Source: Escherichia phage MN01. From it: DNA of 64,000 bases. This document shows, in pieces, positions 4,790-59,923 of this stretch (position 1 is the first letter of the stretch; every line of letters starts with the position of its first letter). The stretch is taken from sequence record MT129652.1, one strand, 5' to 3'. The notes below the pieces were generated by a model. The model was not told where the DNA came from and did no database searches. It saw only the letters and a program-made list of their open reading frames with translations. Position numbers and translations under genes: made by a program.

Positions 4790-5065
4790 ATGGGCACCAT
4801 GGGTGAAACAATGAACTGGTTAACAAATATTCCCACATCGGCGCTGGATATCGACCGTAAACATGCTCATAAGGAAATCGAGCAACAAAAAATTAATCGG
4901 TTACAAAGGCTTAAGACTGAATCCGAGACAATTAAAGCCGAACGACCGACAGAATCGAAAAGTTCTTACTCATCATATCAATCTCCTAACTCATCATATC
5001 AATCTCCTATTGGCATGGCCGTAGACATTGCAGTCTTTGGCGTTCCACTTGGAGTGTTTAAGTAG
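4790..5065 (+). CDS. hypothetical protein with tandem SSYQSP repeat
   Basis: ORF in track; contains a 2 x 21 nt direct repeat encoding SSYQSP-SSYQSP. Confidence 0.35.
   Translation: MGTMGETMNWLTNIPTSALDIDRKHAHKEIEQQKINRLQRLKTESETIKAERPTESKSSYSSYQSPNSSYQSPIGMAVDIAVFGVPLGVFK
4968..5010 (+). repeat. short tandem direct repeat (2 x about 21 nt) inside coding sequence
   Basis: tcatcatatcaatctcct occurs twice in tandem. Confidence 0.7.
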
Positions 5066-5121
5066 TTTACTTACTCCCCTCCTAATGACATAATGGTCTT
5101 TCTTACAACAGAGAGACCATT

Positions 5122-5682
5122 ATGAACATCATCAAATCTGATACCGAACCCAACCAGTTAAAATTTAGTGAAATGGAGATAGCTTCATTATTTGAATGCC
5201 GCACATCAAAGGTTGATAAGACCTTGCATTCAAATGTCAACTCAATCATCAAGTCAAGGTTGTCTATACCCGATACAGTCTTGTGGCGCGGAGTAACCCA
5301 GCAAGAGATTGATTTGTTAGATGAAGCAAAAGAATCAATGCAACCTTTTGAATTTGGACGGGTAACCTCCTTTACAGAAGACTATGGTATTGCCAGGGAT
5401 TTTGCTGCAATGGAATATGTGACTAGGACTATCGTCAGATTGAATCAGACCAAAGCTTTTTGTTACCATGATGCGATGCGCAAAATCGCGCTTGACGTTC
5501 CACTGGAATTCTTCAATACAGCTTCTGGTTCCGCCCGGGCAGCTACATTAAGGCGCGAAGAATACATGGACATGATTGATTCTGAGCTTGAATGGTTTGT
5601 TCCAGTTGACCAGAAATTCGTGGTAGTTGACGCTGGATTTGTTGGTGATTATTATGTTCTTGACTGTGTACAAGAGCAATAA
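5122..5682 (+). CDS. ADP-ribosyltransferase, ModB-like
   Basis: 186 aa; R-S-E class ART triad in order: LWRG (Arg), TSFT (STS-like), ELEWF (E-x-E); sits in the modB slot upstream of dda. Confidence 0.5.
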   Translation: MNIIKSDTEPNQLKFSEMEIASLFECRTSKVDKTLHSNVNSIIKSRLSIPDTVLWRGVTQQEIDLLDEAKESMQPFEFGRVTSFTEDYGIARDFAAMEYVTRTIVRLNQTKAFCYHDAMRKIALDVPLEFFNTASGSARAATLRREEYMDMIDSELEWFVPVDQKFVVVDAGFVGDYYVLDCVQEQ

Positions 5683-5726
5683 GACACGTTAAGATGTTCC
5701 TATCAACTACTGATGAGGATAATAAA

Positions 5727-6341
5727 ATGCTGTACACTGATGACGTTTTGAATGGAATTATTGACACTGCCGCTTCTAGCGAGTCTTTTCGTGACCAATG
5801 TCAAGCTGAGATTGATGCTCTTTATACAGATAATGAGCAATCAGTACTCTGGCAGTGTATGGAAAATAAACCCGACCTGATTCAAGAAGACTTGTCCAGG
5901 ATTATCCGCAACAATCTGAATACTGCACCGCCGGCAGCATTGTTCCGTGGTATATCAAAGAAAACCATGGAATACCTGGAAGATTTAAGATATGTTGGTG
6001 CAATAATTGAGTTCAACCGTGTGATGAGTTTTTCCAGAGACTGGCAGGTTGCAAGAAATTTTGCATCATACAGTTTCTATGGCACAAGGAACATTTTCTG
6101 TATAAACAATGCACCATATGCGTATAACTATCAGGAAGCAATCTTCAAAATGATTTGCGGTGCTCCTCCCGAAGAGTTCAATGGTGCATATCCAGAAGCA
6201 ACCAGGAAGTCAAACCTACACCTGGTTAATGATGAGGATGAGTTTATGTTTCCCGCTGGGACTACGCTTCGCGTAGACTTGATTGAAACTCACCCATTGA
6301 ATAACCTTTATACTGTTTGGCATTTGACTGTTTTGAACTAA
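5727..6341 (+). CDS. ADP-ribosyltransferase, ModA-like
   Basis: About 204 aa from internal ATG with GAGGA SD; FRG, MSFS and EDEFMF motifs in ART order; paralogous to the preceding ORF. Confidence 0.5.
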   Translation: MLYTDDVLNGIIDTAASSESFRDQCQAEIDALYTDNEQSVLWQCMENKPDLIQEDLSRIIRNNLNTAPPAALFRGISKKTMEYLEDLRYVGAIIEFNRVMSFSRDWQVARNFASYSFYGTRNIFCINNAPYAYNYQEAIFKMICGAPPEEFNGAYPEATRKSNLHLVNDEDEFMFPAGTTLRVDLIETHPLNNLYTVWHLTVLN

Positions 6342-6400: not shown

Positions 6401-6430
6401 GTGTACATGAAAGATGAACAGTGTATAATA
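6401..6430 (+). promoter_or_regulatory. early-type promoter (GTGTACA -35, 17 nt spacer, TATAAT -10)
   Basis: Member of a repeated promoter cassette family; followed by conserved leader CATACTGAGTTACC. Confidence 0.55.
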
Positions 6431-6476
6431 ATTTCATACTGAGTTACCAAATCGTCCGTAAGATGAGAAAAATAAC

Positions 6477-7220
6477 ATGAATATGTCAAAAGAAGAGTTT
6501 GAATTAAAAGTTTACAAACGTCGCGAGCATACCAAAACGTCTGCAAAACGTCGTAACAAGGATTTCAATCTGTCTAGTAAGTATATTGCTAATCTTTTGA
6601 AACAAGAATTCTGTGCGTATTCTGGTGAACGTTTTGATGAAAATTCAACTCAAGATAAAGTTTCCTTTGAACGCTTTAACAATGATATAGGTTATATTGA
6701 AGGCAATGTTATCCCTGTCAAAACTAAGTACAACGGTTTACGTGCTGATTTATCTCTTGATGAACTTAAACGTGCACAGACTCGTTTGGCGGTGCGTATT
6801 AATGGCGGTTCTAAGATGCCCAATAGTTTTAAAGTAACTCCTGATGGCTATTATAAAATTCGCAAAATTGTTAAAAATATTAAAGATACTGAACGTGGAA
6901 TCAAGAAGCGTCAAAAACATTTAAAAGAGCTTTATAAAAGTGGCGCTAAAGATACCACCCCTTCTGTGATTGCAGTCAAGGCTCGTATACATGGACAAAT
7001 GGCTTCCATTGGAACTAGTCAACGTGGACTGAAAATGGTTATGGGTGGTCCTGACTGGCGTCTGAAAATGAAATCATCTGACGCTGAAACGCGTTACGAT
7101 ATGTATGATAAAATTATTCAAGGTCTGGAGCGTTTAGATAAGTTGTCATTCATTGACCGTCTTAAACTGAAACGTGGCCTGCCTTTGAACGCGTCAATTT
7201 TTAAACTGATTAGAGGTTAA
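6477..7220 (+). CDS. basic protein (247 aa), possible degenerate HNH-type (Mob-like) endonuclease
   Basis: Very Lys/Arg-rich; region SFERFNNDIGYIEGNV resembles the DRxDN..GY..N core of phage HNH_3-type nucleases. Assignment tentative. Confidence 0.35.
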   Translation: MNMSKEEFELKVYKRREHTKTSAKRRNKDFNLSSKYIANLLKQEFCAYSGERFDENSTQDKVSFERFNNDIGYIEGNVIPVKTKYNGLRADLSLDELKRAQTRLAVRINGGSKMPNSFKVTPDGYYKIRKIVKNIKDTERGIKKRQKHLKELYKSGAKDTTPSVIAVKARIHGQMASIGTSQRGLKMVMGGPDWRLKMKSSDAETRYDMYDKIIQGLERLDKLSFIDRLKLKRGLPLNASIFKLIRG

Positions 7221-9800: not shown

Positions 9801-9830
9801 GTGTACAAGGCCAATGGAAAGAGACATAAT
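9801..9830 (+). promoter_or_regulatory. early-type promoter (GTGTACA -35, CATAAT -10)
   Basis: Cassette family member; followed by stem-loop CATCAACTACTGATG and SD AGGA. Confidence 0.55.
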
Positions 9831-9861
9831 TATCTCATCAACTACTGATGAGGATAACAAA

Positions 9862-10119
9862 ATGATTACTTCTTTTGAAATTGGCCAACAATATGAAATG
9901 TCTGCTCTTCAAGCTGCTGAAGCAGGTCTGACTAAAGCGTTTGAATGTGCATTTACAAATATTCGTGGTAAAATCTTTACTGTCAATAAAATTGCGGTAT
10001 ATGATAAAGAAACAGACATGAACAAAGGCATCTACTTGAACGTGTCAAACGCAAAAGGTCGTCGTGAAATTATGGTTGTACAACCTAACCAACTGGCGAT
10101 GTTCAATAAGGTTGCATAA
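9862..10119 (+). CDS. hypothetical protein (85 aa)
   Basis: Internal ATG of track ORF 9814-10119 placed right after the leader stem-loop and SD. Confidence 0.4.
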   Translation: MITSFEIGQQYEMSALQAAEAGLTKAFECAFTNIRGKIFTVNKIAVYDKETDMNKGIYLNVSNAKGRREIMVVQPNQLAMFNKVA

Positions 10120-10874: not shown

Positions 10875-10882
10875 ATTTAAAG

Positions 10883-10911
10883 TGTACAAACTCTTGGGGT
10901 CGGAGTATAAT
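10883..10911 (+). promoter_or_regulatory. early-type promoter (GTGTACA -35, TATAAT -10 inside GGGGTC/GACCCC inverted repeat)
   Basis: Cassette family member. Confidence 0.55.
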
Positions 10912-10953
10912 GACCCCACTGGAGAATAAACTTATTAACCAAGAGAGAAAATT

Positions 10954-11514
10954 ATGAAAGTTGAAGCTGGCGAAATCGTTCGCGTATCCAAAAAATCTCG
11001 TTCAAGAGCTGCTGGACGTTTTGTTGAGGTTGTCAGTATTCGTGCTGATATTTTTGTTGACCATCCTGATAATGAAGTAAAGGTGCGTATCATTCCCAAA
11101 AATGGTCAGACTGAAACTCAATTCGCTTATGTACGTGCTAAATTCCTGGAATCAACTGCTATCACTGCCACCAACCTCCCTGTGGTTGAAGAAGTTGAAT
11201 CCCATGATGGATATGTGTGCGAAAGCAATGATATTCGTGGCGTAATTGCTCAAGACGTTGAAACCATTGACCAGTCTCATGTTGGGGTTGATTTTAAATG
11301 GAAATTGGGCAAAGGTGTCTTTTTTGTTTCACCTAAACCGTTTGAATATGTTGACGAACCTTTTGGTACTTATGAAACCACTAGCATGTCTGGTTACATC
11401 ACAGACCAGTGGGTTGAAGAAGGCGTTAAGCTCTATAACATCGTGTTCCTTGGAACCTTTAAGGTGGTTCCTGAAAGCTTTATCGTTGAGTATGCTGATA
11501 TTCATCGTGCCTAA
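10954..11514 (+). CDS. hypothetical protein (186 aa), paralogue of 10119-10874
   Basis: Shared C-terminal block ITDQWVEEGVxLxNxVxxGxFxVVP. Confidence 0.5.
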   Translation: MKVEAGEIVRVSKKSRSRAAGRFVEVVSIRADIFVDHPDNEVKVRIIPKNGQTETQFAYVRAKFLESTAITATNLPVVEEVESHDGYVCESNDIRGVIAQDVETIDQSHVGVDFKWKLGKGVFFVSPKPFEYVDEPFGTYETTSMSGYITDQWVEEGVKLYNIVFLGTFKVVPESFIVEYADIHRA

Positions 11515-19826: not shown

Positions 19827-20403
19827 AACATGGGAGCATCTGAAAAAGATGCCCTCCTTTCTTTATACAAAAGAAGACTTAACCCCTGAATCTCTACAAA
19901 AGATTGTAGACACAGCCAGGTATTCATTGCGTAAAGACCCAGGTCAAGACCGTGAGCAAGTCATGCAAAGATGTATGGTGGCTACAATGGCCGAACAAGC
20001 TATTGCTAAATGGACCTCCGGCTTTTTATGTGGCGGCGATGAAGATTACGATAATCCTTATTCCTTTGCATTTGATGTAGTTTCGAAGGAAGGAGTAAGA
20101 ATCGAAGTCAAGACCCATCAGTCTGGTTCCAAATGGATATCCGTGCATACTGGCCACCAGGGTGATTATCCACATGGTTACGGGATTAATCTTGGTCCTT
20201 TTATGCAGCACAAGCTTGCCGACCTTATGATTATGCTCGATGTAAAAGAGACTCTCAAAGGTTATAGATTTAAACCAAAATTCCTTGCTGGACCTGGTGC
20301 TTTCGTTCCTGAGTCTGGTCTTGTGCAGAAGTCACAAGGGGATGGCTGGTACCTCCGTTCTTGTTCAGAAGAAAAATTTCCCTATCACCGGTTTACAAGC
20401 TGA
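19810..20403 (+). CDS. putative PD-(D/E)xK nuclease in the slot of T4 denB (endonuclease IV)
   Basis: 197 aa (T4 DenB 185 aa); candidate catalytic signature FDVV...RIEVK; position downstream of rIIB as for denB. Confidence 0.45.
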   Translation: MIQKSKTWEHLKKMPSFLYTKEDLTPESLQKIVDTARYSLRKDPGQDREQVMQRCMVATMAEQAIAKWTSGFLCGGDEDYDNPYSFAFDVVSKEGVRIEVKTHQSGSKWISVHTGHQGDYPHGYGINLGPFMQHKLADLMIMLDVKETLKGYRFKPKFLAGPGAFVPESGLVQKSQGDGWYLRSCSEEKFPYHRFTS

Positions 20404-20448
20404 ACCAACCATGTAATAATGTCCTCACACCAACAAATGAGGACATTA

Positions 20449-20726
20449 TCATGGAACAAGTTACTACTCAAAACATCAAACAAATTCTTATTCAAGCACT
20501 CAAAAACAACAACATCAATTTTCCAACCCATGAAATTTTTGATGTGGTATTCAACGAAGTCCAGGGTCAAGTTGCATATTATGACGTTATCATTTATCTT
20601 TCAGAATTTGAAGTCTACCACCTGACTGAAATCGCTTTCTATCTCTATCGTGGGACTGCAGATTTTACCGGGGTCGTGAATGCAGTTGGTGCATATAAAG
20701 AAGTTAAAGAACAAATGCACAATTAA
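20449..20726 (+). CDS. hypothetical protein (92 aa)
   Basis: Internal ATG of track ORF 20361-20726 preceded by GAGGA SD. Confidence 0.35.
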
Positions 20727-20736: not shown

Positions 20737-20766
20737 GTGTACATCAGTATGGAGTCTATGTATAAT
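20737..20766 (+). promoter_or_regulatory. early-type promoter (GTGTACA -35, TATAAT -10 inside CAGTATGG/CCATACTG inverted repeat)
   Basis: Cassette family member. Confidence 0.55.
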
Positions 20767-20802
20767 GATTCCATACTGAGTTACCAAATACTGGAGAATA
20801 AA

Positions 20803-20958
20803 ATGAAACCTGCTCAATATGCAATGACTTTATACCTTGAAGTTAATGGCGATATTACTGAATTTTTTAAATTAATGCAACAGCGCGGAAAAAGTTTTGC
20901 AGTTACTGAGCGTCAATTTTACGCGTGTCGCAAAAATACATACAATCGTTATGCATGA
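20803..20958 (+). CDS. hypothetical protein (51 aa)
   Basis: ATG after CTGGAGAATAAA leader. Confidence 0.3.
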   Translation: MKPAQYAMTLYLEVNGDITEFFKLMQQRGKSFAVTERQFYACRKNTYNRYA

Positions 20959-20968
20959 GGAAAATAAA

Positions 20969-21319: not shown

Positions 21320-21349
21320 GTATACATCTCCAGTGGTTGTAGTATAATG
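21320..21349 (+). promoter_or_regulatory. early-type promoter (GTATACA -35, TATAAT -10)
   Basis: Cassette variant, followed by TATCAACTACTGGAGATGATT-ATG. Confidence 0.45.
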
Positions 21350-21501
21350 AACCTATCAACTACTGGAGATGATTATGAAAAAGTTACTTAAAGCCATTTG
21401 GAACATGTTTGTACTGTTTGTTGTCCTGAGCATTTTCCCAATTGTTTTTATGATTGACCATGTACGTGTTTACTTTAACTATTTCTTTTGAGGATAATAT
21501 T

Positions 21502-21865: not shown

Positions 21866-22107
21866 AACTTTTTAAAGACATTGCAGTTGGTGAAAAATTT
21901 GTCCTGGGTAATGGTCAACAACTGATTCGCATTTCGCCTTTGATGGATAACAGCGAGCGCCCTGTGCGCACTGAAAACTGTTTGGATTATCCTTTTTATC
22001 AGAAGCGTTTTGCAATTGAAAATAATACTGAGTGCTTCACAGTTGATGAACTGATGGAATCATCAGAAGAAGTTGACTTGTGGGATGGCGCAGTTGATGT
22101 AGAATAG
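21862..22107 (+). CDS. hypothetical protein (81 aa)
   Basis: ORF in track; ATGA-coupled to previous. Confidence 0.35.
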   Translation: MKLFKDIAVGEKFVLGNGQQLIRISPLMDNSERPVRTENCLDYPFYQKRFAIENNTECFTVDELMESSEEVDLWDGAVDVE

Positions 22108-22136
22108 TGTACAAACTTTTGGGAGCAGAGTATAAT
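22107..22136 (+). promoter_or_regulatory. early-type promoter (GTGTACA -35, TATAAT -10 inside GGGAGC/GTTCCC inverted repeat)
   Basis: Cassette family member. Confidence 0.55.
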
Positions 22137-22175
22137 GTTCCCAGTGGATAATAAAATTTAGCTGAGGAAATCATT

Positions 22176-22520
22176 ATGTCTAAAGTATTTTTTGGTAATC
22201 GCAACATTATGTTCTTTAAACAGATTAGCGTATCAGAAGCATTTGATTTAAGTTATTCAGGCGGTACAAAAGCTGTTAACCTTAAAAATTTGATGTCTGC
22301 AGAATTTGCATTCTATCAGGACCCTGAAACTGGTTTCTACAAATTTATTAAGTTCCGCATGACTATGGACCGCGATTATCGTGATGTTTATTATACAAGT
22401 TATGAAAGTGTTATCAATGCAATTCGTGAAGCTTATGGATTGGATTCGTTGTCGCTTGACCGCCTGTATAATGCAAGCCTTTACACCAGTGGATTTATTT
22501 TAGAACAGCTTCAAAAATAG
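22176..22520 (+). CDS. hypothetical protein (114 aa)
   Basis: ORF in track with GAGGAAATCATT-ATG context. Confidence 0.4.
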   Translation: MSKVFFGNRNIMFFKQISVSEAFDLSYSGGTKAVNLKNLMSAEFAFYQDPETGFYKFIKFRMTMDRDYRDVYYTSYESVINAIREAYGLDSLSLDRLYNASLYTSGFILEQLQK

Positions 22521-22549
22521 TGTACAAACTCTTGGGGTCTGAGTATAAT
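22520..22549 (+). promoter_or_regulatory. early-type promoter (GTGTACA -35, TATAAT -10 inside GGGGTC/GACCCC inverted repeat)
   Basis: Cassette family member. Confidence 0.55.
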
Positions 22550-22593
22550 GACCCCACTGGAGCACAAAACTTTAACTTACTGAGGAAATTAAT

Positions 22594-24946: not shown

Positions 24947-24976
24947 GTGTACATGACCCTTGACCTGATGCATAAT
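24947..24976 (+). promoter_or_regulatory. early-type promoter (GTGTACA -35, CATAAT -10)
   Basis: Cassette family member with CATACTGAGTTACAC leader. Confidence 0.55.
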
Positions 24977-25025
24977 GATTCCATACTGAGTTACACAATG
25001 AATCACAAAAACTTTGGAGAATAAA

Positions 25026-25241
25026 ATGTTTACTGCACAACAGAATGAAGGTCAAGAATACATTAACGCTAAATTCAAATCCAATAAAGAAGCTTGCTAT
25101 TACTACTTTGACATGTTCAAACTGGCGAATTCTAAAGAAGAACGTAAACAAGCGATTGATGTTATTGTTTCCACTTCCCATATGAAACGTACTGTGGTAC
25201 AATCATATGCATCAAATTACATGAAATCTATTAAGGGATAA
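25026..25241 (+). CDS. hypothetical protein (71 aa)
   Basis: ATG after CTTTGGAGAATAAA leader; internal start of track ORF 25014-25241. Confidence 0.4.
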   Translation: MFTAQQNEGQEYINAKFKSNKEACYYYFDMFKLANSKEERKQAIDVIVSTSHMKRTVVQSYASNYMKSIKG

Positions 25242-28400: not shown

Positions 28401-28412
28401 AGCGCTTATGTA

Positions 28413-29195
28413 CTATAGCCAGGAGCCGTAGATAGTGCCTGTAGCGCCCCATGAAGGAGAACTTCCGAATACAGCTCGTCCAGCTCCGCCTTGTGAGCCG
28501 TATGTAACGCTTCGTCCGTAAGCACCGCCACCAGCCCCGCCCGCATCGCCACCATTACCACCACCCCACTGTCCGCCAAAGCTACCACCGCCACCTGGGC
28601 CTGTATAACTAGCGTTGCCACCTGGGTTTACGGCACCATTAGTACCACCTAATCCATATGGTCTACCGCCACCGCCACCGGCAGTACCAGCTTCAAGCCA
28701 AGAGTTATTTGAAGCGCATCCGGCACCACCGCCACCACCTGAAGCTATAACGCCATAGTTCCAGATACGGAGTCTGCCTCCAATGTCGTTTTGAATTACA
28801 TCACCGCCATTTGTACCTGCTATCCAAACACGGGTCCCACCATTACCACCGCGTCCCCACATATGAACCCCACCATGAATATTCAAAGTAACATATTCAT
28901 TAGGAGTATCACCGTACATAAAGAACAATGGAACATCTTTAGTATAAGATACTAAATCACCTGTGATATTAAACACAATAGGGGCAGCACCGGCTTCAAA
29001 ACAACGGTCTCTAAACCATTGCCCGTTAAAGTTATGGTCGGCTCCAAGCGTGTGAATTACTTCAACAGATCGACCTATCATATTACTCATCCAAAATGGA
29101 ACACCCATTCTTAATCTTACGGCTGCTCCTGCCATCCAAGGGTCTCCAGTTTGTACCCTTGCAGACCATCCTACCCACGGTCCTTCAACTGCCAT
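28413..29195 (-). CDS. 38: long-tail-fibre tip adhesin gp38 (T2 type, glycine-rich motifs)
   Basis: N-terminal domain close to T2 gp38 as remembered ([50 protein letters not shown]); C-terminal half has poly-Gly motifs separated by variable segments; start set at MAVEGPW with GGAGG SD. Confidence 0.85.
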
Positions 29196-29207
29196 ATAAA
29201 CCTCCAA

Positions 29208-29221
29208 GGGGCCGAAGCCCC
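29208..29221 (-). other. stem-loop (GGGGC-UUCG-GCCCC) in the 37-38 intergenic spacer
   Basis: Perfect 5-bp stem with UUCG tetraloop on the minus-strand transcript, just upstream of the gp38 SD. Confidence 0.5.
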
Positions 29222-29226
29222 TCTTA

Positions 29227-32200
29227 TTATTTTAACAATGATTTAACTAAAGATTTAAGTTCTTCAATCTCTGATTTCAATTCTGCTATTTCAGCAGTAT
29301 GCTCATTGATTGCAGCTGTATTTAAACCAATTACACCGTTATAGTTCAAACGAAGTAAAGCTTCACCATCAGGGTCACCTTCAACCAATTCAGGTAAAAT
29401 AGCTTGAACTTCTTGGGCAATTAAACCAGCATTAGGTTCCCATTTCTGATTACCTTCCTCATCTAGGCCTCGCTTCTGCATATAAGTGTAACCGTTAATT
29501 TTAGAAAGCTTCTGAGAAGCATTTTCAAATTTAACAAGGTCCTTTTTAACACGAATATCAGAGCGGACATAAACATCTCGAACATATGTAGAATAGGCAT
29601 CACTTTGTTGGACTAAATGACCGAAAGAAATAATAGCTCGTCCTGTTTCGGTCCACAAAGCACCGGTGGTATCCCAAAGACCTTCATGGATATGGTAAGA
29701 GCTAGACCATGAAGCAATATGAACACCATTGGCAACCATATTGATTCGGCCGTCACCACCATGAACTAATCCGGTATCATTATCACCAATAACAAGACAC
29801 GGGCCTGTCCATACAGGGTCACCACCACCAGCTGATAATCTTGCTCCAGTTTGAACCATGTTAGGAACATACAAAACTCCGTTATGATGGAATTCATATA
29901 TAGCTTGTGGGTCGGAACCGTTTTCCTGGTTACCTACACGAATAATACCTTGCGCCCAGTTATTAGTAATGCGTCGCATACCAAAATCAACACCTGATAT
30001 GAATCCTTCACCAGTAATACCTGATTTTCCTTTGATAATAGGATAATAACTATCATTACCAACATTACCAAAATCCACAAATACCGGTGCTTCTTGCTTC
30101 CATTGATTACCAAAACCACCACCTTGGTGAGCCGTCCAGACAGAGCCATTAATAAAAAGCCGGTCCCTATTAAAATTAAAAGTGGCTGAACCTTGTGGGT
30201 TTAAAGCAATATCACCACCTGCATTAATATTAACACCCGAATTAGTTTGAAAACTATAAAATGATATAGCATTATCAGCACCACCGTTACCTACATACCA
30301 GTTATCAATACCAGCTTTTTGTCCTTTCAAATAACCAGATTCGGTTGCAGCACTGTTAATAACAATAGCATCCGAGTTTACATTCAGAGTTAAACGGCCG
30401 GTCATTGTATCGCCGCCTTTACCAACACGAGTATTCACCGCCGCGTCAAGGTTAGTAGCACCGCTATACTTGTTCCAAATAGAACCTGCAATATTACCAT
30501 CAGTATTCATGAAAGCTGTACCGGCATATAAGCGGTTCTGAGCCATGAAGTTACCTTCTTTGGTAAAGCGCCAATATTTTAATCCTGTAGCATCACCATC
30601 ACCAAGCAAATCACCTTGAGCAACAATTCGGTATTCGCTCGTAGCTCGGTCCATACCTTGAGTAACGGTTATATTCGAATCGATATTTTTCTGCTTAGTA
30701 ATAGGATAAAATGCTTGAGTTGCAGCATCGAGCGTTTGATACACCAGAGCTTTAGTCGTGTTCTGGTTGGCATAAGATGCACCGTTACTATTAGGGAATT
30801 CCAATGCACCATTACCCCTAAAATAAACCTGGTCTGCTTCTAAGTTAGGGATTTTAACACGACCAGTGTCTAACATAATACTTAATGGGCGTAATGGGCC
30901 TAATCCGCCACTTTCGCCGGCATTAACATTGGTCGGGATAATATGCAGCTGGTCTTCCGAATTTCGAAAAATAACACCGTACTTGTCGTTCCAAATACGA
31001 AGTCCACTAGCAGCGCGAACTTTAATTTCATTGGAAACATACAGATTGCGTTTTAAGGATGTATCTTGATTGACAGTCAATCCTTCAATTACATTCATGG
31101 TACCATTTAAATAGGATTCGACTTTACCTGCTGTAGTTCGTTGAATATAATGCATCCAGCCGGTAGCATCAGATGTTTCCATTACGTTTTTACGGTCGCC
31201 ATCGACACTAGTAAAGGTATTACCCCAAACGCTGATAGTCATATTATCAACTGAACTACTTCCTGTTGTATTTCCTTTAAAAAGCACTGTCGAAGCAGTA
31301 CTGAGACCATCAATATTAACCGAACCACCACGGACTTCAACGTTACCAGGAGTAACCAACAACCCACCATCGGTGTTAACGTTTGTTACACCTTTGCCAC
31401 GAAAATAATGGTGATATTTGCCGCTTTGGTGATAACCTAAAAGAGTTTGACCGTCGCCGAAGCCGTTTTTATCATTAGTAGTATTAACAATAACTAATGG
31501 ATAGTTTTGAGTTGTAGGAAGAATTAAATCAGAACCGTTGGTTGAATAACCCGCAACTAACTGTTTAAGGCTTGTAACTTCAGTTGGAGTTGTAAGTAAA
31601 GTATAAGCTCCATTATTAACTGTATGGAACTGGCCATCTTGCTTCCATTTCAAACCTGTGTTATTGTCGCCAAGTGCGATAGCAGACGGACCTAATGTTG
31701 AGTATCCTGAGCTATCCCCAGGTAGGCCAACGGAAAGAGAATTTGATGTTTTGACATCGCCATCTGCATTAAATGACCAAAGATACTTAGCTGTTCCGGC
31801 TGTAGAAATAGAATGCCATGAAATACCATTTACATTATTAAGTTCACGATACCTAATTCCATCGACAGCGTGTCTACTTATTCTAAGATAGTTAATAGCT
31901 GTTGCGCTTGAACTTGCAGGATTATTATTTGCTAATGAAGATATATCATAATCAAGAGCTGATTTATTACCAGTATCAACGGTATTAGTATAAATTACTG
32001 GAGATTTCACCGATGTTCCGCTGGAAATAGACGGAGCATAAAATAAACCGTCACCGTTGAATGCAAAAATATTAGATGTTGAATTAGTATAATCCTGGAC
32101 ACGAACGTTCAAGATTTGCTTGGTAGTTCCTGGGCGTGATTGTGAATAAATTATGCCTCTTTCACGTGCATCAGCCAAATCCTGGAATCGAACGTGGGTG

Positions 32201-32553
32201 GTTCCTGTACCCCGTACAAGAACTTCACCGTTATCTGTCATTAGGCGAGATTTTGCTGTGATATCACCATTTGCTGTTACACTTCCGGATGTCGCATAAC
32301 TACCTGTTTGGGTAAAAGTACCATTCAGGGCATAATCACCGGTCTGATTGTAATTTCCTTTATGAATAACATTACCATCGATATTACCACCTTTAGCAAA
32401 GCCAAGGTCGATAATAGCTCCAGTGTCGTCTTTAGTAAAAAGTAAGCGGTCTTTCAGGTTGATAGCCAGTTCACCTTCAGCAAGAACTGTTGGCGCCGGA
32501 CGAACGCCGGCAACCTTACTTCTTTTAAATTGTATTTGTTTTAAAGTAGCCAT
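29227..32553 (-). CDS. 37: long tail fibre distal subunit gp37 with C-terminal intramolecular-chaperone-like domain
   Basis: 1108 aa; N-terminal 60 aa nearly identical to T4 gp37 as remembered; C-terminal about 110 aa ([15 protein letters not shown]...coiled coil) resembles tail-spike auto-processing chaperone domains. Confidence 0.9.
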
Positions 32554-32561
32554 AATGCCTC

Positions 32562-33209
32562 TTAATAATATCCAAAATCTTGTACGGAGTCTTTAAGAAC
32601 GATTTGGTCAAAACGAGGCACATGGGCCGGGTCTGATGCTGGGTTCCTAGAGAAGAAATTAGGTGCTGACAAGTTACCTGTCATTGTTTGCAATGTACTA
32701 TTATTTAGTTCCACTTGTTGTTGGTTGGTTACATTACCAAGACCGACTTGAGCTTTTGATGGAGTGTTCCCTGGAGAAAATACACGACCTGTTTCATCAT
32801 AAATGTGACGAGCTAACGTATCACCCATAACAGTAAGACGTTTTGCTCCTGTCGTAGTGTCAGGGTCAAAAATAACAAATGGTGTTCCTGTTTCAGTCTC
32901 AAATCCAAACGGTCCTTTAATACGGAAAGATGCTGTAAATGGTGCTCCACCTGTTCTCGCTCCCAACTTAATCCCGTAACCATTTGAATCGTTAAATGTC
33001 AGGCCTTGTTCGAAATACACATTTGCTTTATAATTACCACCCAGAGCTTTAGAAACAAAATCGTTATCGACTGCTTGTGGCTTGTTATATTCGGAATAAA
33101 TTTTATAAGTTTTGAAATATAAGTCATTGCTGACTGGTGTTAATGGGAAATTACCCTGGTGCCAGAGGACCGAACCTCCGGCTGTTGAGCCTAGTTTTAA
33201 ATCTGCCAT
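32562..33209 (-). CDS. 36: long tail fibre hinge subunit gp36
   Basis: 215 aa (T4 221 aa); between gp35 and gp37 as in T4. Confidence 0.8.
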   Translation of the reverse strand: MADLKLGSTAGGSVLWHQGNFPLTPVSNDLYFKTYKIYSEYNKPQAVDNDFVSKALGGNYKANVYFEQGLTFNDSNGYGIKLGARTGGAPFTASFRIKGPFGFETETGTPFVIFDPDTTTGAKRLTVMGDTLARHIYDETGRVFSPGNTPSKAQVGLGNVTNQQQVELNNSTLQTMTGNLSAPNFFSRNPASDPAHVPRFDQIVLKDSVQDFGYY

Positions 33210-33244
33210 TTATAAGTCCTCTTCAACCGGCATATGATATTTTG

Positions 33245-33252
33245 TATTTATA
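33245..33252 (-). promoter_or_regulatory. late promoter motif for gene 36
   Basis: TATTTATA on plus strand, upstream of the gp36 start on the minus strand. Confidence 0.5.
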
Positions 33253-33258
33253 ACGAAA

Positions 33259-33280
33259 AAAGGACTCCGAAGAGTCCTAT
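33259..33280 (-). terminator. probable terminator after gene 35
   Basis: Hairpin AGGACTC-UUCG-GAGUCCU followed by a U-tract on the minus-strand transcript. Confidence 0.45.
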
Positions 33281-34407
33281 TGTTTTTCTCGTAGTTCGGC
33301 TGCGTATATCTTGCCGGCTCTCGGAGCTTGTGCATCTGGGAATGTTACAATTGTATTACCTGTATTTGTTGCATCGTTTGCATATGACATCCTTATGCCG
33401 TTGACACCAAATTCAGCTGGTTTGAATGCCGAGTCGCCTCTGGTTATCTCACCAATAACAATATTACGTATTGACCCTGTTCCAGTAGCTACAGTTCTTG
33501 ATGTTACTACCGTAAAGCCATCAGCTCCCGCTGGAATCTCGACATATCTTTCGAAACTCGCCCAAGCCCCGGCTGGAACGTTTGCTGCAATATCGATGTT
33601 TGTATTTGATATTGGAGCAGTGCTAGGGCTTTTAAAGAATCGAACCGAAGTCCTTACAGTTCCGGCGGCTTTCAGTTCTGCGTCAAATGACATCTGAAAC
33701 TTCAAGTAAAGCACATCCAAAGGTAAAAGGTTATAGGTATCCATAGGAGTCACCAGGTCCTCTGTGGGAAACCTTTTAATTGTGGTTGGTGTTCCATCAC
33801 CTGTTGATGAATACGTGCTCTCGTCTTCCGTTATGCGCACAGGATAGCCTGTTGCCCCTATATCACTAAAGGTATCATAAACGACTTCAAGCGGAGTCGA
33901 AACATCCTCAACTAACTTCCCGTCATTATACTTAACATGCTCCGAAACAATTACGTTCCTGCCGGTTATGTAAAAAGCCGAGTACGATGTATCAACTTTA
34001 TCAATCAACCATTTCTCTGGGAATGCTCTTGAACCACATTTACGGAACCAGTCAATTAATGTCTGTGATGCATTTAGTTTCCCAGAAGAAATAAAAGCAA
34101 TCAATCTTCCAGCTGGTACAGATTCCACAAAGGTGATTAATGCCTGACTGATTACATCGTGTGAGCTAGTTAATGAATAGTTTTTTGTGTTAACAATTTT
34201 ATTCGTAGTTGTATCAATTTCTAATAGAGTCAAACCATTACCAAAAGTAGTTGGTCCGATTCGTTCATCCTGGAATTTGATATACGATTTCACCGTGGAA
34301 AGAGTACAGCTCCCTGCTATACTCATTTTAAATTTAACGGCATTATTTTCTGATATAACTGGCGTTTGGACATATCCTTGTCCAAACTCTGCCATAAATT
34401 TTTCCAT
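33277..34407 (-). CDS. 35: long tail fibre hinge connector gp35
   Basis: 376 aa (T4 372 aa); syntenic between 34 and 36. Start may be the fifth codon (MAEFG). Confidence 0.75.
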   Translation of the reverse strand: MEKFMAEFGQGYVQTPVISENNAVKFKMSIAGSCTLSTVKSYIKFQDERIGPTTFGNGLTLLEIDTTTNKIVNTKNYSLTSSHDVISQALITFVESVPAGRLIAFISSGKLNASQTLIDWFRKCGSRAFPEKWLIDKVDTSYSAFYITGRNVIVSEHVKYNDGKLVEDVSTPLEVVYDTFSDIGATGYPVRITEDESTYSSTGDGTPTTIKRFPTEDLVTPMDTYNLLPLDVLYLKFQMSFDAELKAAGTVRTSVRFFKSPSTAPISNTNIDIAANVPAGAWASFERYVEIPAGADGFTVVTSRTVATGTGSIRNIVIGEITRGDSAFKPAEFGVNGIRMSYANDATNTGNTIVTFPDAQAPRAGKIYAAELREKQ

Positions 34408-34415
34408 ATTACCTC

Positions 34416-40630: not shown

Positions 40631-40690
40631 AGTATAATTAATACGTAATCAAAACAACTGCTAAAAATCAAATAATCTAAGGAAAATCAT

Positions 40691-41605: not shown

Positions 41606-41634
41606 AAGGGGACCTTCGGGTCCCTTTTTTATTT
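41606..41634 (+). terminator. rho-independent terminator after gene 32 (GGGACC-TTCG-GGTCCC + T-tract)
   Basis: UUCG tetraloop hairpin followed by TTTTTT. Confidence 0.65.
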
Positions 41635-41644: not shown

Positions 41645-41674
41645 GTGTACAAGTCCTTTGAGCTAAGGCATAAT
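41645..41674 (+). promoter_or_regulatory. early-type promoter (GTGTACA -35, CATAAT -10)
   Basis: Cassette family member followed by CATCAACTACTGATA stem-loop and GAGGA SD. Confidence 0.55.
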
Positions 41675-41712
41675 GATTCCATCAACTACTGATAACAACT
41701 GAGGAAATAAAA

Positions 41713-42075
41713 ATGGAAATCGGCAAAAAATATGAGTTCAATCCACATCGTATTAAATCTTTCATTGATATTAGTTCATCGAATGCCAGTATGGTTGACA
41801 TCATCCAAGAAAATGGCGGTTGGTTTGAAGTTAAATCAATATCAAGTGCAGACGGATATGATTATGTAACCGAAATCATTTGTGCTAATGGTGCAATCTA
41901 TAATGATGATGGCATGGGTGATGATTATTTTGAACTTAGTGAAGAAGAGTTTTATTGCTTCCGCGAATACTCTAATTATGCAAAAACACCTTCAGGGGCG
42001 GTTTCTATTAATTGTGTTGTGGATGCTAATAACGTTGACCAAATCATTGAACTTTTGCAAAAAGCTTTCAAATAG
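41713..42075 (+). CDS. hypothetical protein (120 aa), member of a three-copy paralogue family
   Basis: Shares GK.Y...P..K..FI N-terminus and D.YFEL.E.EF core with ORFs 42426-42788 and 55416-55958. Confidence 0.45.
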   Translation: MEIGKKYEFNPHRIKSFIDISSSNASMVDIIQENGGWFEVKSISSADGYDYVTEIICANGAIYNDDGMGDDYFELSEEEFYCFREYSNYAKTPSGAVSINCVVDANNVDQIIELLQKAFK

Positions 42076-42137
42076 CAGTTTACAACGGGTCTATGGTTGA
42101 GATACTATAGACCTATCAACTACATGAGGAAAATAAA

Positions 42138-42365
42138 ATGGCTAAGGTTAATATTGATATCGTTGATTTTGAATACACTTACGAAGTTATTCGTAATCGG
42201 TATCCTTCTTTGTGTATGACTTACATTAAAGATACTGAAGTCTTTGGTATTCAAATTGAAGTCCAAGGTCCTCTTGAAGATATTACCCGCTTTATGCAAA
42301 ATGAATATTGTGACGGTATGTATCCAGAAGACACTAAATTTTATATGAATTTGATTGAAGCTTAA
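42138..42365 (+). CDS. hypothetical protein (75 aa)
   Basis: ORF in track preceded by promoter-like GTTTACA...TATAG and stem-loop/SD. Confidence 0.4.
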
Positions 42366-42393
42366 GTATACAAACAAACGGGAACATGATAAT
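42366..42393 (+). promoter_or_regulatory. early-type promoter variant (GTATACA -35, GATAAT -10 inside GGAACAT/ATGTTCC inverted repeat)
   Basis: Cassette-like architecture. Confidence 0.45.
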
Positions 42394-42425
42394 ATGTTCC
42401 CTCAATTGAATATGAGGAAATTAAA

Positions 42426-42788: not shown

Positions 42789-42789
42789 C

Positions 42790-43044
42790 ATGACTAAAGA
42801 TGATTTCCTGGATGCAGTGGAAAAAGCCAGTGAACAATTTGAAGTGATGGGTGTGCGTTTGCATAAAGACAGAAATTATGGTCTGGATGTTCAAACCTAC
42901 TCATTATGGCTTGTGGGTGAGCACAGTCTTGCAACCAATCTTGTTATGGGTGTAGATACATATCCTTTATTAGTTAAGTTCAGAAGTATGGAAAAAGCCA
43001 ACAAGGAAATGATTAAACTTGGCAAATGGCTTGATAAAATTTAA
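42790..43044 (+). CDS. hypothetical protein (84 aa)
   Basis: Internal ATG of track ORF 42778-43044. Confidence 0.35.
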   Translation: MTKDDFLDAVEKASEQFEVMGVRLHKDRNYGLDVQTYSLWLVGEHSLATNLVMGVDTYPLLVKFRSMEKANKEMIKLGKWLDKI

Positions 43045-43050
43045 AAAGTA

Positions 43051-43080
43051 GTGTACAACCAAATGGGGCTATGACATAAT
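43051..43080 (+). promoter_or_regulatory. early-type promoter (GTGTACA -35, CATAAT -10 inside ATGGG/CCCAT inverted repeat)
   Basis: Cassette family member. Confidence 0.55.
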
Positions 43081-43121
43081 GGTCCCATACTGAGTTAACA
43101 ACTAAAACACTGGAGAATAAA

Positions 43122-43361
43122 ATGAAATTACAACGTGAGAGCATCAAAGATTCAGAAGTTAAAGGCAAATGGTACTTCACAATCCAAGGTAACAATCCAG
43201 AAGCTCTGGAAAAAGCTGAACAAGCTTTGTGTGAAATGGGTTGGAAAGATGAGTGTGATGGTTGCCCTCTTTATGAAGATGGTAGCTCATCCGGTTTCTG
43301 GATTTACCACTCTGACGTTGACCAATTTAAAGCTGACTGGAAAGTTGCCAAGAAAGCGTGA
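43122..43361 (+). CDS. hypothetical protein (79 aa)
   Basis: ORF in track after CTGGAGAATAAA leader. Confidence 0.4.
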   Translation: MKLQRESIKDSEVKGKWYFTIQGNNPEALEKAEQALCEMGWKDECDGCPLYEDGSSSGFWIYHSDVDQFKADWKVAKKA

Positions 43362-51087: not shown

Positions 51088-51097
51088 TAAAAAAGGG

Positions 51098-51127
51098 GTG
51101 TACAAGCCCCTTCTTTCTATACATAAT
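51098..51127 (+). promoter_or_regulatory. early-type promoter (GTGTACA -35, CATAAT -10)
   Basis: Cassette family member followed by CATCAACTACTGATG stem-loop. Confidence 0.55.
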
Positions 51128-51158
51128 GGTTCCATCAACTACTGATGAGGACCAAAAC

Positions 51159-51392
51159 ATGTTAAACTTAATTACAAATGACAGAGTTACACAGGCATAT
51201 GGTGACAGAAATGATGGAATCTATGTCTACAAGGGAGACCGCCGGATTGGTTTCATTACTGACCTGAAGGCCAAATTGTTAAAAGAATTGAAAGCTCAAA
51301 CAAGTGATTCTGGGTTTAGAGCAAGAGCCAAAAAGAAAGATGAGCGCCTGGGTGCCAACTCTTTTGGTCCCCGGGGTTACAACCGCTACTAA
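51159..51392 (+). CDS. hypothetical protein (77 aa), paralogous to the N-terminus of the next ORF
   Basis: YGDRNDGIYVYKGDRRIGFITDLKAKL versus YGDRHDGIYVYKGTKKIGLMTDLRKKL in the next gene. Confidence 0.4.
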   Translation: MLNLITNDRVTQAYGDRNDGIYVYKGDRRIGFITDLKAKLLKELKAQTSDSGFRARAKKKDERLGANSFGPRGYNRY

Positions 51393-55355: not shown

Positions 55356-55386
55356 GTGTTTACTTTCACCACGGATGGTGTATAAT
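55356..55386 (+). promoter_or_regulatory. early-type promoter (GTGTTTAC -35, TATAAT -10)
   Basis: Sigma-70-like elements with 17-nt spacing upstream of ORF 55416. Confidence 0.45.
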
Positions 55387-55415
55387 GAATTTCATCAACA
55401 CATGAGGAAAACAAA

Positions 55416-55958
55416 ATGAGTAATTTCTTTGAAGAAGGCAAGTTTTACAAGTTCGCATCTGAAAATGCCAAAAAACAGTTTGTCTCCGGTGGTTGGGCAG
55501 CTAATTACCAAATTGCTGGATACATCGGTATGACTCCGTTTGAAGTGAAAATTGTACCTGATACTACGAGCGGTGGAAGAAAAGTTTGTGAGATTCGTTT
55601 GATTGATGAAAATGATTTTGTGGATTTGGCAAAAATATCTGGCGCGCAGAACAGGCATCATGGAGCAATGTTTGTTTCTGCTGGTCCATTGTCTGACGAA
55701 TTTGATTATTTCATCCAGGCGGAAGTTGGTGTTAAGCCAGAAGTTGAACCTGTGCCAGTAAAACTTGCATCAGTTTGGAAATTGCTTGTGGTTAAAAATG
55801 GCAAGATTGAGATTAACTCTCGTCATACGTCAAAAGAATATGCGGAAGGCGAAGCAGAGCGTCTGTTAAACCGTGGTACTGCAGAAGATTGCTATATTAT
55901 CAAAGGCGATATCGCAAAAGTTTCTATCGTTAAACAAGTTAAACAGGAGACAATCTGA
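55416..55958 (+). CDS. hypothetical protein (180 aa), third member of the GKFY...KKQF paralogue family
   Basis: N-terminus GKFYKFASENAKKQFVSG parallels ORFs 41713 and 42426. Confidence 0.45.
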   Translation: MSNFFEEGKFYKFASENAKKQFVSGGWAANYQIAGYIGMTPFEVKIVPDTTSGGRKVCEIRLIDENDFVDLAKISGAQNRHHGAMFVSAGPLSDEFDYFIQAEVGVKPEVEPVPVKLASVWKLLVVKNGKIEINSRHTSKEYAEGEAERLLNRGTAEDCYIIKGDIAKVSIVKQVKQETI

Positions 55959-59046: not shown

Positions 59047-59076
59047 GTGTACAACAGGATTTACCCAGTGCATAAT
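59047..59076 (+). promoter_or_regulatory. early-type promoter (GTGTACA -35, CATAAT -10)
   Basis: Cassette family member with CATACTGAGTTACAC leader. Confidence 0.55.
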
Positions 59077-59117
59077 GATTCCATACTGAGTTACACAATA
59101 AAACACTGGAGAATAAA

Positions 59118-59486
59118 ATGAAAATCAATCTTAACTCATACATCAAAGGTAAAGACCACGACGGTTACAAAGCCATTGAAACTAAAGAAATGCAATGGCA
59201 CTTGTATAAAGAACAGTTTGAATTTGTTGGTTGTATGACTCCTGAAGGTCCTTCTGATGACTTCTCCTGGAAAATTATGGTAACAAACTTTTTTACTGGT
59301 GATACCTACGAACTGAAAACTTTGATTTTGGGTAAGATTCGTTGTAAGACCTATGAAGATGAAGAAACTGGTTATTCTGAAGATGTTACATGGTATCAAA
59401 ATGGTCGCACCACTGCAGACCTTCTGATTGAAAAAATGAAAGCTAAGGGTGAATTAAATTTAGATAATTGGATTAAAGTCGCATAA
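59118..59486 (+). CDS. hypothetical protein (122 aa)
   Basis: ORF in track after CTGGAGAATAAA leader. Confidence 0.4.
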   Translation: MKINLNSYIKGKDHDGYKAIETKEMQWHLYKEQFEFVGCMTPEGPSDDFSWKIMVTNFFTGDTYELKTLILGKIRCKTYEDEETGYSEDVTWYQNGRTTADLLIEKMKAKGELNLDNWIKVA

Positions 59487-59557
59487 AACAGTTTACTTTG
59501 GTACAGGTTATGATATTATAGACCTGTACCAACAAATGAAAACAACTGGAGAATAAA

Positions 59558-59923
59558 ATGAACTACATCAACTTTGAACGCAAATATGTTTCTAACTGCA
59601 TCCCAGGTTCTTCTGAAGTTATTTGCTTGTGGAAACACCAAAACGGTTCAGTTTGTGAAATTGAACAATATATGACTCCTAACTACGTTTATATGCGATT
59701 TGAAAATGGTATCACTCTTTCAATCACGATGGAAGGTTCGGTATTCAAAATCGCGTTAGATGATGATTTCCGTGAACGTGATTTAGGGACTCATCCTTGT
59801 TGGAATGGCGTTAATCGCAAGCTTCTGGTTAAAACTTGGATTCGTCACATCCTGAGCAACAAAGCAAAACCTGAACACCTGGAAGCAATCTTTGATGTAG
59901 TTCTTAATGAATTTGATATCTAA
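59558..59923 (+). CDS. hypothetical protein (121 aa)
   Basis: ORF in track after promoter-like GTTTAC...TATGATATTAT and CTGGAGAATAAA. Confidence 0.4.
   Translation: MNYINFERKYVSNCIPGSSEVICLWKHQNGSVCEIEQYMTPNYVYMRFENGITLSITMEGSVFKIALDDDFRERDLGTHPCWNGVNRKLLVKTWIRHILSNKAKPEHLEAIFDVVLNEFDI

Follow-up and report, generated by a model that had tools for sequence, protein, structure and literature searches.

In the 64,000-nucleotide (nt) stretch of Escherichia phage MN01 analyzed here (MT129652.1; hereafter the window), short sequence motifs recur between early promoters and the start codons that follow them. Our analysis indicates, with a probability of roughly 0.7, that these motifs are the complete 5' untranslated regions (5'UTRs) of immediate-early transcripts, each composed of a start element and a combined Shine-Dalgarno/RegB block, and that they reside in promoter cassettes of the PeSL type. 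This is a clear but largely ordinary case of known T4 biology, with no new mechanism. The window derives from a T-even phage of the VR7/SP18 group (Gaprivervirus), being 91-97% identical to the Gaprivervirus phages EAWsc9, P8, VR7, and SP18. Its gene order is T4-like, running dda-srd-modA-modB … rIIA-rIIB … 52-motA-asiA, then the tail fibres, followed by rnh-59-32-frd-td-nrdAB-denA-63-pseT … 30.

The extent of the leaders follows from their position relative to the promoters. Every copy of the two principal motifs, referred to as form A and form B, starts 6 nt past a -10 box, including the copy at 5701, and this spacing provides the predicted start site and the whole 5'UTR (20-45 nt). The early promoter of this clade, GTGTACA-N16-18-YATAAT, was found 13 times in the window against an expectation of 0.02, always on the + strand; with its A/T-rich upstream region it reads AAAAAGTA-GTGTACA-N16-18-YATAAT, and about 20 copies are present when looser variants are included. 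A generic sigma70 scan of the window recovered the promoters, but its totals were not above those of shuffled sequences, so that the clade-specific pattern alone is informative. The logo of 31 promoters, taken from the window and from non-overlapping regions of VR7, displayed G at -6, (C/T)CC at -3..-1, A at +1, and T at +2, in agreement with published RB69 and RB49 promoters, which are C-rich at -3..-1 (PMC1524935). Our literature search on VR7 promoters and leaders found no description of them, and the VR7 genome paper may list these promoters. The cassette of modA contains the following features:

5666..5701, + strand: modA early promoter, with -35 box GTGTACA at 5666-5672, a 17-nt spacer, and -10 box TAAGAT at 5690-5695
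5696-5701, + strand: discriminator of the modA promoter, GTTCCT; the promoter lies inside the 3' end of modB
5702..5729, + strand: modA form A leader, ATCAACTACTGATGAGGATAATAAAATG, with predicted +1 at 5702 and ATG at 5727-5729
5717-5727, + strand: RegB-type site of the modA leader, GGATAATAAAA

This leader is identical in VR7, VR20, VR26, and SP18, and the -10 box of the promoter reads TAATAT in SP18. Three start codons in the window have in-frame ATGs located 11-16 codons 5' of them (5694 vs 5727, 9814 vs 9862, and 51126 vs 51159). Program-made open reading frames (ORFs) and the SP18 RefSeq modA start at these upstream ATGs, inside the promoter or leader, and the VR7 and JS98 annotations use the downstream ATG, the one with a Shine-Dalgarno sequence; the upstream starts of modA and the two other genes are probably over-extensions. 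A short upstream ORF in the 9836 copy (AUG AGG AUA ACA AAA UGA) was rejected as a candidate, having no Shine-Dalgarno sequence and not being kept among the copies.

Form A, CATCAACTACTGATG, with at most two mismatches, has 4 matches in the window, at 5701, 9836, 41680, and 51133, each of them on the + strand; 0.22 were expected, and 0 of 100 shuffles reached 4. Form B, CCATACTGAGTTAC, at the same threshold, was detected on the + strand at 6434, 20771, 24981, 43085, and 59081 and once on the - strand, giving 6 matches in total against 0.28 expected by shuffling. The - strand match corresponds to the promoter spacer of the 20737 cassette, in which AGTATGG is complementary to CCATACT. The form A variants at 21351 and 42111 are real and consist of ATCAACTAC followed by a different Shine-Dalgarno block, with another such variant at 55389-55418. 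A third recurrent leader, which we term form C (TATAAT-GACCCC-ACTGGAGAATAAAC...), is present at 10882, 22107, 22520, and 52644. The claim of the initial annotation that leader modules recur after cassette promoters is therefore upheld, all the sites that it listed being present within about 5 nt of its positions. Its full form A consensus applies to 5701 and 9836 but not to 51133, which ends GAGGACCAAAACATG, or 41680, which ends TGATAACAACTGAGGAAATAAAAATG; at 6434 the 5' element of form B is retained, but the remainder is an srd-specific leader without GGAG. The remaining cassettes and modules are as follows:

9801..9864, + strand: form A cassette of the ORF between dexA and motB.1, promoter 9801-9830
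9837-9864, + strand: leader of the 9801 cassette, ATCAACTACTGATGAGGATAACAAAATG, with GGATAACAAAA at 9852-9862
41645..41715, + strand: form A cassette located after gene 32, with its promoter at 41645-41674 and its leader at 41681-41715
51098..51161, + strand: form A cassette downstream of rnlA (gene 63), promoter 51098-51127
51134-51161, + strand: leader of the 51098 cassette, …TGATGAGGACCAAAACATG, in which GGAC is a poor RegB match
21320..21377, + strand: A-type variant cassette, leader ATCAACTACTGGAGATGATTATG at 21355-21377
42078..42140, + strand: A-type variant cassette, leader ATCAACTACATGAGGAAAATAAAATG at 42115-42140
55358..55418, + strand: A-type variant cassette, leader …TCATCAACACATGAGGAAAACAAAATG
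6401..6479, + strand: srd leader with the form B start element, ATACTGAGTTACC at 6436-6448, followed by srd-specific leader sequence lacking GGAG
20737..20805, + strand: form B cassette, leader 20773-20805, exact GGAGAATAAAA at 20793-20803
24947..25028, + strand: form B cassette, leader 24983-25028, exact GGAGAATAAAA at 25016-25026
43051..43124, + strand: form B cassette preceding frd.1, leader 43087-43124, with exact GGAGAATAAAA at 43112-43122
59047..59120, + strand: form B cassette, leader 59083-59120, exact GGAGAATAAAA at 59108-59118
10882..10956, + strand: form C cassette of motB, with stem GGGGTC/GACCCC across the -10 box and a leader starting ACTGGAGAATAAAC
10921-10931, + strand: RegB-type site in the form C motB leader, GGAGAATAAAC, which is not the Shine-Dalgarno sequence
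22107..22178, + strand: form C cassette, whose leader has GGATAATAAAA at 22146-22156, located 5' of the true Shine-Dalgarno sequence
59548..59560, + strand: stand-alone ACTGGAGAATAAAATG Shine-Dalgarno module, without a promoter, at an internal gene start

The 9801 cassette occupies the position of the T4 motB.2 leader, after dexA. In the 41645 cassette the Shine-Dalgarno block, GAGGAAATAAAAATG, lies further downstream and does not adjoin the form A hairpin, its GGAA is a poor RegB match, and the loop changes from ACTAC to ACTGC in the VR7 orthologue. The conservation in related phages that was anticipated for these leaders was clear within the genus and partial beyond it. Genomes of the VR7/SP18 group carry 4-6 copies of form A and 8-13 copies of form B each, and full-length leader matches were found in 57 phage records for form A and 46 for form B, with single or partial matches elsewhere. 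The 59081 form B leader (44 nt) is at least 99% identical in 29 phage records, and the A-type element together with its CTACTGAGGA context extends to JS98 and T4.

Each leader consists of two separable, freely recombining parts, namely a promoter-linked start element (AUCAACUAC in family A, AUACUGAGUUAC in family B) and a Shine-Dalgarno block. Mixed combinations occur in VR7 (ATCAACTAC+TGGAGAATAAAATG, ATCAACTAC+GGAGAACAAACATG, and ATCAACTAA+TGAGGAGAATAAAATG), the JS98 modA leader reads ATCAACTGAGGAGAATAATATG, and the srd leader carries a B element in the window and an A element in JS98, its 3' part being otherwise orthologous. Alignment placed the T4 motB.2 leader, ATAGCTACTGAGGATAATAAAATG, and the T4 sp leader in the form A family, and the T4 motB promoter and leader are homologous to form C. 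Canonical form A resembles the ancestral motB.2/sp type with a duplicated TGA, converting TGAGGA into TGATGAGGA. Among 11 form B cassettes, mean pairwise identity was 0.95 at +1..+13 and 0.92 in the -10 box, compared with 0.42 in the spacer and 0.51 at +14..+26. This conservation of the first transcribed positions at the level of the -10 box, which the spacer of the same cassette does not share, argues against a simple recent duplication; the reason for which the first 10-13 transcribed nt match the -10 box in conservation is the one point of wider interest. The proposed start consensus, G-6 … (C/T)CC-A(+1)-U(+2) followed by CAACUAC (family A) or ACUGAGUUAC (family B), may be kept for setting the start site, for the escape of RNA polymerase from very strong promoters, and for maintaining an unstructured 5' end.

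The proposal that the Shine-Dalgarno sequences are of the RegB target type is well supported by the sequence. In T4, efficient RegB/S1 cleavage requires the single-stranded 11-mer GGAGAAUAAAA, with the general form GGAGRAYARAA (Durand 2006, PMC1702504). GGAU is cut only with a strict A-rich tail, as in the two cases of motB.2 and 55.2, GGAA is poorly cut, and some RegB sites lie in leaders upstream of the translation start (PMC1702504). The tail of form B is exactly this T4 11-mer, with its last A forming the A of AUG, and exact GGAGAATAAAA is present in 5 copies in the window. The broader pattern GGAKRAYARAA was found 8 times against 0.92 expected, always on the early strand, and seven of the eight matches lie in promoter-proximal leaders. 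GGAG is present in 4 of the 5 form B copies and in the form C leader at 10882, and GGAU at the form A copies 5701 and 9836 and at 22146; the RAYARAA tail (positions 5-11) appears as GGATAATAAAA at 5717 and 22146 and as GGATAACAAAA at 9852. The block of the 5701 copy, GGAUAAUAAAA, is identical to that of T4 motB.2, and the 9836 block is GGAUAACAAAA; in both copies GGAU is accompanied by the strict A-rich tail needed by T4 RegB. Form B leaders were predicted to be unstructured, with a minimum free energy (MFE) of 0 to -3.5 kcal/mol and an unpaired probability of the site of 0.70-0.91. For the form B leader with an MFE of 0, all 200 of 200 shuffles folded at least equally well, in keeping with the single-stranded target that RegB requires. 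The form A sites had predicted unpaired probabilities of 0.53-0.75 in primary transcripts.

A regB homologue, which the initial annotation suggested looking for, lies outside the window. The gene is annotated in VR7 (Pfam REGB_T4, E=3.8e-72, full-length match) and is at least 98.7% identical in every close relative (EAWsc9, ECML-359, P8, pEC-M719), and MN01 itself presumably carries it as well. Further genes annotated in VR7 are regA and pseT. The VR7 regB gene (VR7 record ~54910-54980) is preceded by a GTGTACA-N17-TATGAT promoter and an A-type leader, ATCAAACAAAAGGAGATAATCATG, with a GGAG Shine-Dalgarno sequence, an arrangement that fits the RegB self-cleavage of T4. Of the functions that the 3' half of the module may have, RegB cleavage is, by inference, the best supported. 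In this model the Shine-Dalgarno block would double as a RegB/S1 cleavage site, being GGAGAAUAAAA with its final A as the A of AUG in family B, form C, and several A variants, and GGAUAAUAAAA or GGAUAACAAAA in two canonical copies of form A. On the T4 pattern, the block would serve the host ribosome and S1 for strong early translation; RegB, itself an early product, would then cut GG^AG or GG^AU and destroy the Shine-Dalgarno sequence, after which the phage polynucleotide kinase and host RNase E/G would expose the cut mRNA to decay. The outcome would be a timed shut-off of early proteins. In T4, RegB cleavage inactivates the Shine-Dalgarno sequence, and polynucleotide kinase and RNase E/G then hasten decay (PMC3014915).

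The motifs are the leaders, that is, the 3' ends, of early promoter cassettes of the PeSL type. A PeSL combines a stem-loop with an early promoter, a Shine-Dalgarno sequence, and an ATG, and crossovers were mapped between the -10 box and the ATG (PMC2839356, PMC4122927). In the window, 13 of 20 cassettes have a PeSL-type stem-loop with a z score below -2, the stems spanning the -10 box, overlapping the -35 box, or lying just past the -10 box; those at 24947, 41645, 59047, and 6401 are without one. The 3' end of the cassette carries the Shine-Dalgarno sequence and start codon of the downstream gene. Several junctions between related phages fall in these leaders. Through modB and the leader the window is 95-100% identical to SP18, and this drops to 52-75% within about 10 nt past the modA ATG. 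A 51-codon ORF at 20806-20965 (a 162-nt insertion), bracketed by GGAGAATAAAATG and GGAAAATAAAATG, is absent from VR7 and looks like an insertion or deletion that may have arisen by recombination between 13-nt Shine-Dalgarno repeats. The frd.1 gene is preceded by a form B cassette in the window and by a different promoter and leader in VR7, the two being joined at GGAGAATAAAATG. Across 41700-43125 the window has the order window-specific ORF, frd.3, frd.2, ORF254-like, frd.1, and VR7 the order frd.2, ORF254c, frd.3, frd.1; every junction of these permuted genes at 41.7-43.1 kb lies in a promoter-leader cassette. The same 13-25-nt blocks placed before unrelated genes would serve as short homologies for swaps of genes or promoters between related phages.

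Several points weigh against this interpretation. The start site derives from the spacing and a C(-1)A(+1) rule and is therefore a prediction, and the role of the start element is a proposal, since other causes could explain its conservation. The form A copies at 51133 (GGAC) and 41680 (GGAA) are poor RegB sites, and the srd form B copy at 6434 is without GGA, so that RegB targeting does not explain the whole family. Synteny breakpoints were enriched at cassettes under a whole-sequence null (7 of 34 vs 1.14 expected, P about 3e-4) but not significantly under an intergenic-only null (6 of 18 vs 4.0, P=0.19). As the enrichment is significant only with the naive null, the role in recombination rests on the individual junctions rather than on statistics.

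A further possibility, which we regard as tentative and on balance doubtful, is a promoter-embedded switch in which read-through RNA folds and buries the Shine-Dalgarno sequence, becoming untranslatable and RegB-resistant, while RNA from the local promoter stays open. With the discriminator (-6..-1) included, the form A stem extends to 7-11 bp and covers GAGGA, with energies of -6 to -11.9 kcal/mol and z scores of -1.9 to -4.5; the values are -11.9 (z -4.1), -8.5 (z -4.2), -6.0 (z -1.9), -8.0, and -7.8 kcal/mol, the first belonging to the 51098 cassette, which has the longest extended stem. The register of the extended stem differs among the copies. Because the 5' arm is the discriminator, the longer stem is possible only in read-through RNA or single-stranded DNA. 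In the 13 of 20 cassettes that fold with z below -2, the -10 box or the start site lies within or at the edge of the stem, and stem-loops "downstream of the -10" are a described subclass of PeSL. A precedent is provided by the T4 genes e, soc, 49, and I-TevI, whose start is buried in long transcripts and open when transcription begins inside the hairpin (PMC3014915). The start was predicted to be strongly buried at 5065, 20391, and 21320, where both the Shine-Dalgarno sequence and ATG are paired and the 5065 stem has a compensatory change in VR7, and moderately buried at 9801, 51098, and 5666.

Other results count against such a switch. The 41680 copy has no such stem. In a chimera control on the canonical sub-lineage of form A (A1), the native discriminator ranked 3/30, 6/30, 5/31, 23/30, and 8/29, no better than borrowed ones, and any discriminator of this phage gave about -6.4 to -7.3 kcal/mol. 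The extension thus reflects nothing more specific than the pairing of a C-rich discriminator with a GAGG Shine-Dalgarno sequence; co-adaptation of discriminator and Shine-Dalgarno flank left no sign and was rejected as evidence for a selected stem, native pairs being no better. Read-through into the 41645 and 51098 cassettes is, moreover, probably limited by terminator-like hairpins just upstream. At 51093-51112 the -35 box sits in the loop of a terminator-like hairpin, AAGGGGTGTACAAGCCCCTT, after which CTTTC follows, and at 41606-41627 the gene 32 terminator abuts the 41645 promoter, terminator and promoter being packed as one element at both sites.

Further details of the cassette stems were as follows. 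In the modB cassette (5065-5124), the -10 box provides one arm of a 15-bp inverted repeat, CATAATGGTCTTTCT / AGAGAGACCATTATG, and the other arm is the Shine-Dalgarno sequence plus ATG (-20.2 kcal/mol, z -7.7); CATAAT is here the reverse complement of ATTATG, and the VR7 orthologue has GGCC…GGTC for GGTC…GACC, a compensatory U-A to C-G change. At 21320-21377 the promoter spacer TCTCCAGTGGTTGTAG and the A-type leader CTATCAACTACTGGAGA are reverse complements of each other, giving an 18-bp stem with one bulge across the -10 box (-24.9 kcal/mol, z -6.0), which would bury the Shine-Dalgarno sequence and AUG in read-through RNA. At 20391-20452, the Shine-Dalgarno region is base-paired to the -10 box and discriminator through AATAATGTCCTCA … TGAGGACATTAT (-15.5 to -21.7 kcal/mol, z about -4.8). 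The form C cassettes have 6-bp stems across the -10 box (10882-10917, 22107-22142, 22520-22555, and 52644-52679) that covary among copies as GGGGTC/GACCCC, GGGAGC/GCTCCC, and GGGAGC/GTTCCC, with GGGGCC/GGTCCC in VR7 and GGGACC/GGTCCC in the T4 motB promoter.

The initial annotation described form A as a stem-loop and Shine-Dalgarno sequence fused into one module, and the functional version of this idea, in which the 5'-terminal hairpin (CAUC…GAUG) and the Shine-Dalgarno sequence act as a unit, either stabilising the mRNA 5' end or presenting or occluding GAGGA, appears unlikely. The pairing itself exists. The stem CAUCA/UGAUG has 5 bp, a 5-nt loop, and -2.5 kcal/mol in isolation (z -8.2 for the isolated 15-mer), the 13-mer ATCAACTACTGAT is invariant in the 4 window copies and 7 VR7 copies even where it does not adjoin the Shine-Dalgarno sequence, and the sole orthologous change seen is in the loop. 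It is nevertheless weak in the primary transcript, a result that depends on the predicted start site. The first C of the stem (T at 5701) is promoter position -1 and is probably untranscribed from the local promoter, and with the predicted +1 at A only AUCA/UGAU pairs, with 4 bp and about -1 kcal/mol. Whole form A leaders had MFEs of -0.6 to -2.1 kcal/mol and 5'-end pairing probabilities of 0.45-0.66, and the 5701 leader folded no better than shuffles (z +0.98). ATCAAC/CTAC and GAGGA are retained in the A-type (A2) paralogues and in the homologues of JS98 and T4, in which the 3' arm of the stem was not found. No compensatory change was seen in the arms among orthologues; the arms are invariant, so that covariation cannot be assessed. 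With its GGA beyond the paired arms, the RegB site is neither exposed nor masked by the stem. The CAUCA/UGAUG hairpin is confined to A1, where it is a secondary feature that looks like the outcome of the TGA duplication. An IMG/VR scan with the 14-base ATAAT-N6-ATCAACTAC gave 120 mostly chance matches and was discarded as useless; a more specific IMG/VR scan returned only VR20, VR25, VR26, and two unrelated metagenome contigs and added no variation.

The leaders could also have no function of their own, being recent copies or gene-conversion tracts of a mobile cassette that are conserved as young or homogenised sequences, an explanation that we consider improbable. Multiple copies are confined to the VR7/SP18 genus, at the numbers per genome given above, and the junctions of insertions, deletions, and replacements fall in the leaders, as this explanation would have it. 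Duplication or conversion should, however, homogenise the spacer and the leader alike, and their identities of 0.42 and 0.95 (+1..+13) differ widely within the same cassettes. The A-type element and its CTACTGAGGA context are also common to JS98 and T4 at other loci, and the Shine-Dalgarno block matches an experimentally defined functional site (PMC1702504).

We likewise give little credence to a broader scheme, in which AUCAACUAC…/AUACUGAGUUAC… tags would split immediate-early mRNAs into two post-transcriptional classes and the A1 hairpin and discriminator would add a promoter-embedded switch. If true, the two classes could be handled by, for example, a 5'-end-binding factor or different decay entry, and the switch would have each small ORF translated solely from its own promoter and silenced on read-through RNA; together they would provide portable per-gene insulation and timing on a mobile cassette. 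Least probable of all is that the start elements are tags for a trans-acting protein or small RNA that sorts early mRNAs, or that the A-rich block before AUG is a RegA operator: the two families at the RNA 5' end are sharply distinct and highly conserved, and regA is annotated in VR7, but a search of the window and of 123 kb of VR7 gave no antisense or small RNA partner for either start element, no Rfam family matched the window, no candidate binding protein was identified, and the RegA consensus obtained by in vitro selection (SELEX), AAAAUUGUUAUGUAA, differs from AAUAAAAUG.

Apart from the cassettes, the window differs from VR7 in several places. The tail-fibre genes 38, 37, 36, 35, and part of 34 (28410-35946, - strand) are about 67% identical to VR7 or unalignable, compared with 85-96% for the remaining window. 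The 32.1 homing-endonuclease gene lies between 59 and 32 in VR7, and the window differs there (40600-40631); a mobE-like gene near pseT is found only in VR7 (the corresponding place in the window being 54410-54593), and about 0.9 kb is additional between td and nrdA in the window (45157-46035).

Comparison with known systems places the 5'UTR reading among established features of T-even phages and their host. 5'-terminal stabiliser hairpins are found on E. coli mRNAs such as ompA. The A1 stem would likewise begin at nucleotide 1 of the transcript, but its 4 mostly A-U pairs are far weaker and it is not kept in homologues. As in the T4 e/soc type, the predicted start site at 5065, 20391, and 21320, and to a lesser extent at 9801 and 51098, lies inside a stem that pairs the Shine-Dalgarno sequence and/or ATG; the internal promoter of T4 is late and yields an early-versus-late switch, whereas both transcripts are predicted to be early here.

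Like the PeSL of RB49/phi1, PST/T4, and nt-1/KVP40, the cassettes have an early promoter of sigma70 type that is repeated and preceded by A-rich DNA, a stem-loop whose position relative to the promoter varies, and the Shine-Dalgarno sequence together with the ATG at the 3' end; individual cassettes also coincide with ORF insertions, deletions, or replacements between close relatives, the junctions lying between the -10 box and ATG. They differ from those PeSL (Arbiol 2010, Comeau 2014) in genus, in consensus (GTGTACA … YATAAT), and in a highly conserved transcribed part that falls into two or three discrete families; discrete conserved leader families are not mentioned in the consulted text of PMC2839356 and PMC4122927. 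The cassettes thereby offer clean natural examples of gene swapping at 13-25-nt regulatory repeats.

The closest counterparts are the T4 leaders themselves. T4 motB.2 (ATAGCTACTGAGGATAATAAAATG), sp (…AAACTACTGAGGAGATTATCATG), and motB (TATAAT-GGTCCC-GTGGAGTATAAAA) are direct homologues, but T4 is without the TGA duplication that makes the UGAU arm and hence has no hairpin, and the T4 leaders are single copies in the 17 kb of T4 examined, as opposed to a multi-copy family in the window. Like the T4 RegB/S1 sites, those of the window include the exact 11-mer and, in two copies of form A, GGAU plus a strict A-rich tail; they fall in early leaders that are short and unstructured, where the final A of the site begins the AUG, the form C sites precede the true Shine-Dalgarno sequence as in T4 motB, and the clade has regB. 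The window leaders are far more uniform and repeated than those of T4, the consensus is not kept in two of the form A copies or in the srd copy of form B, and cleavage is predicted here and measured in T4. The analysis yields about a dozen precise RegB target predictions per genome, and it suggests that the RegB "kill switch" of T4 has been built into a standard, repeated promoter-leader cassette in the VR7/SP18 genus.

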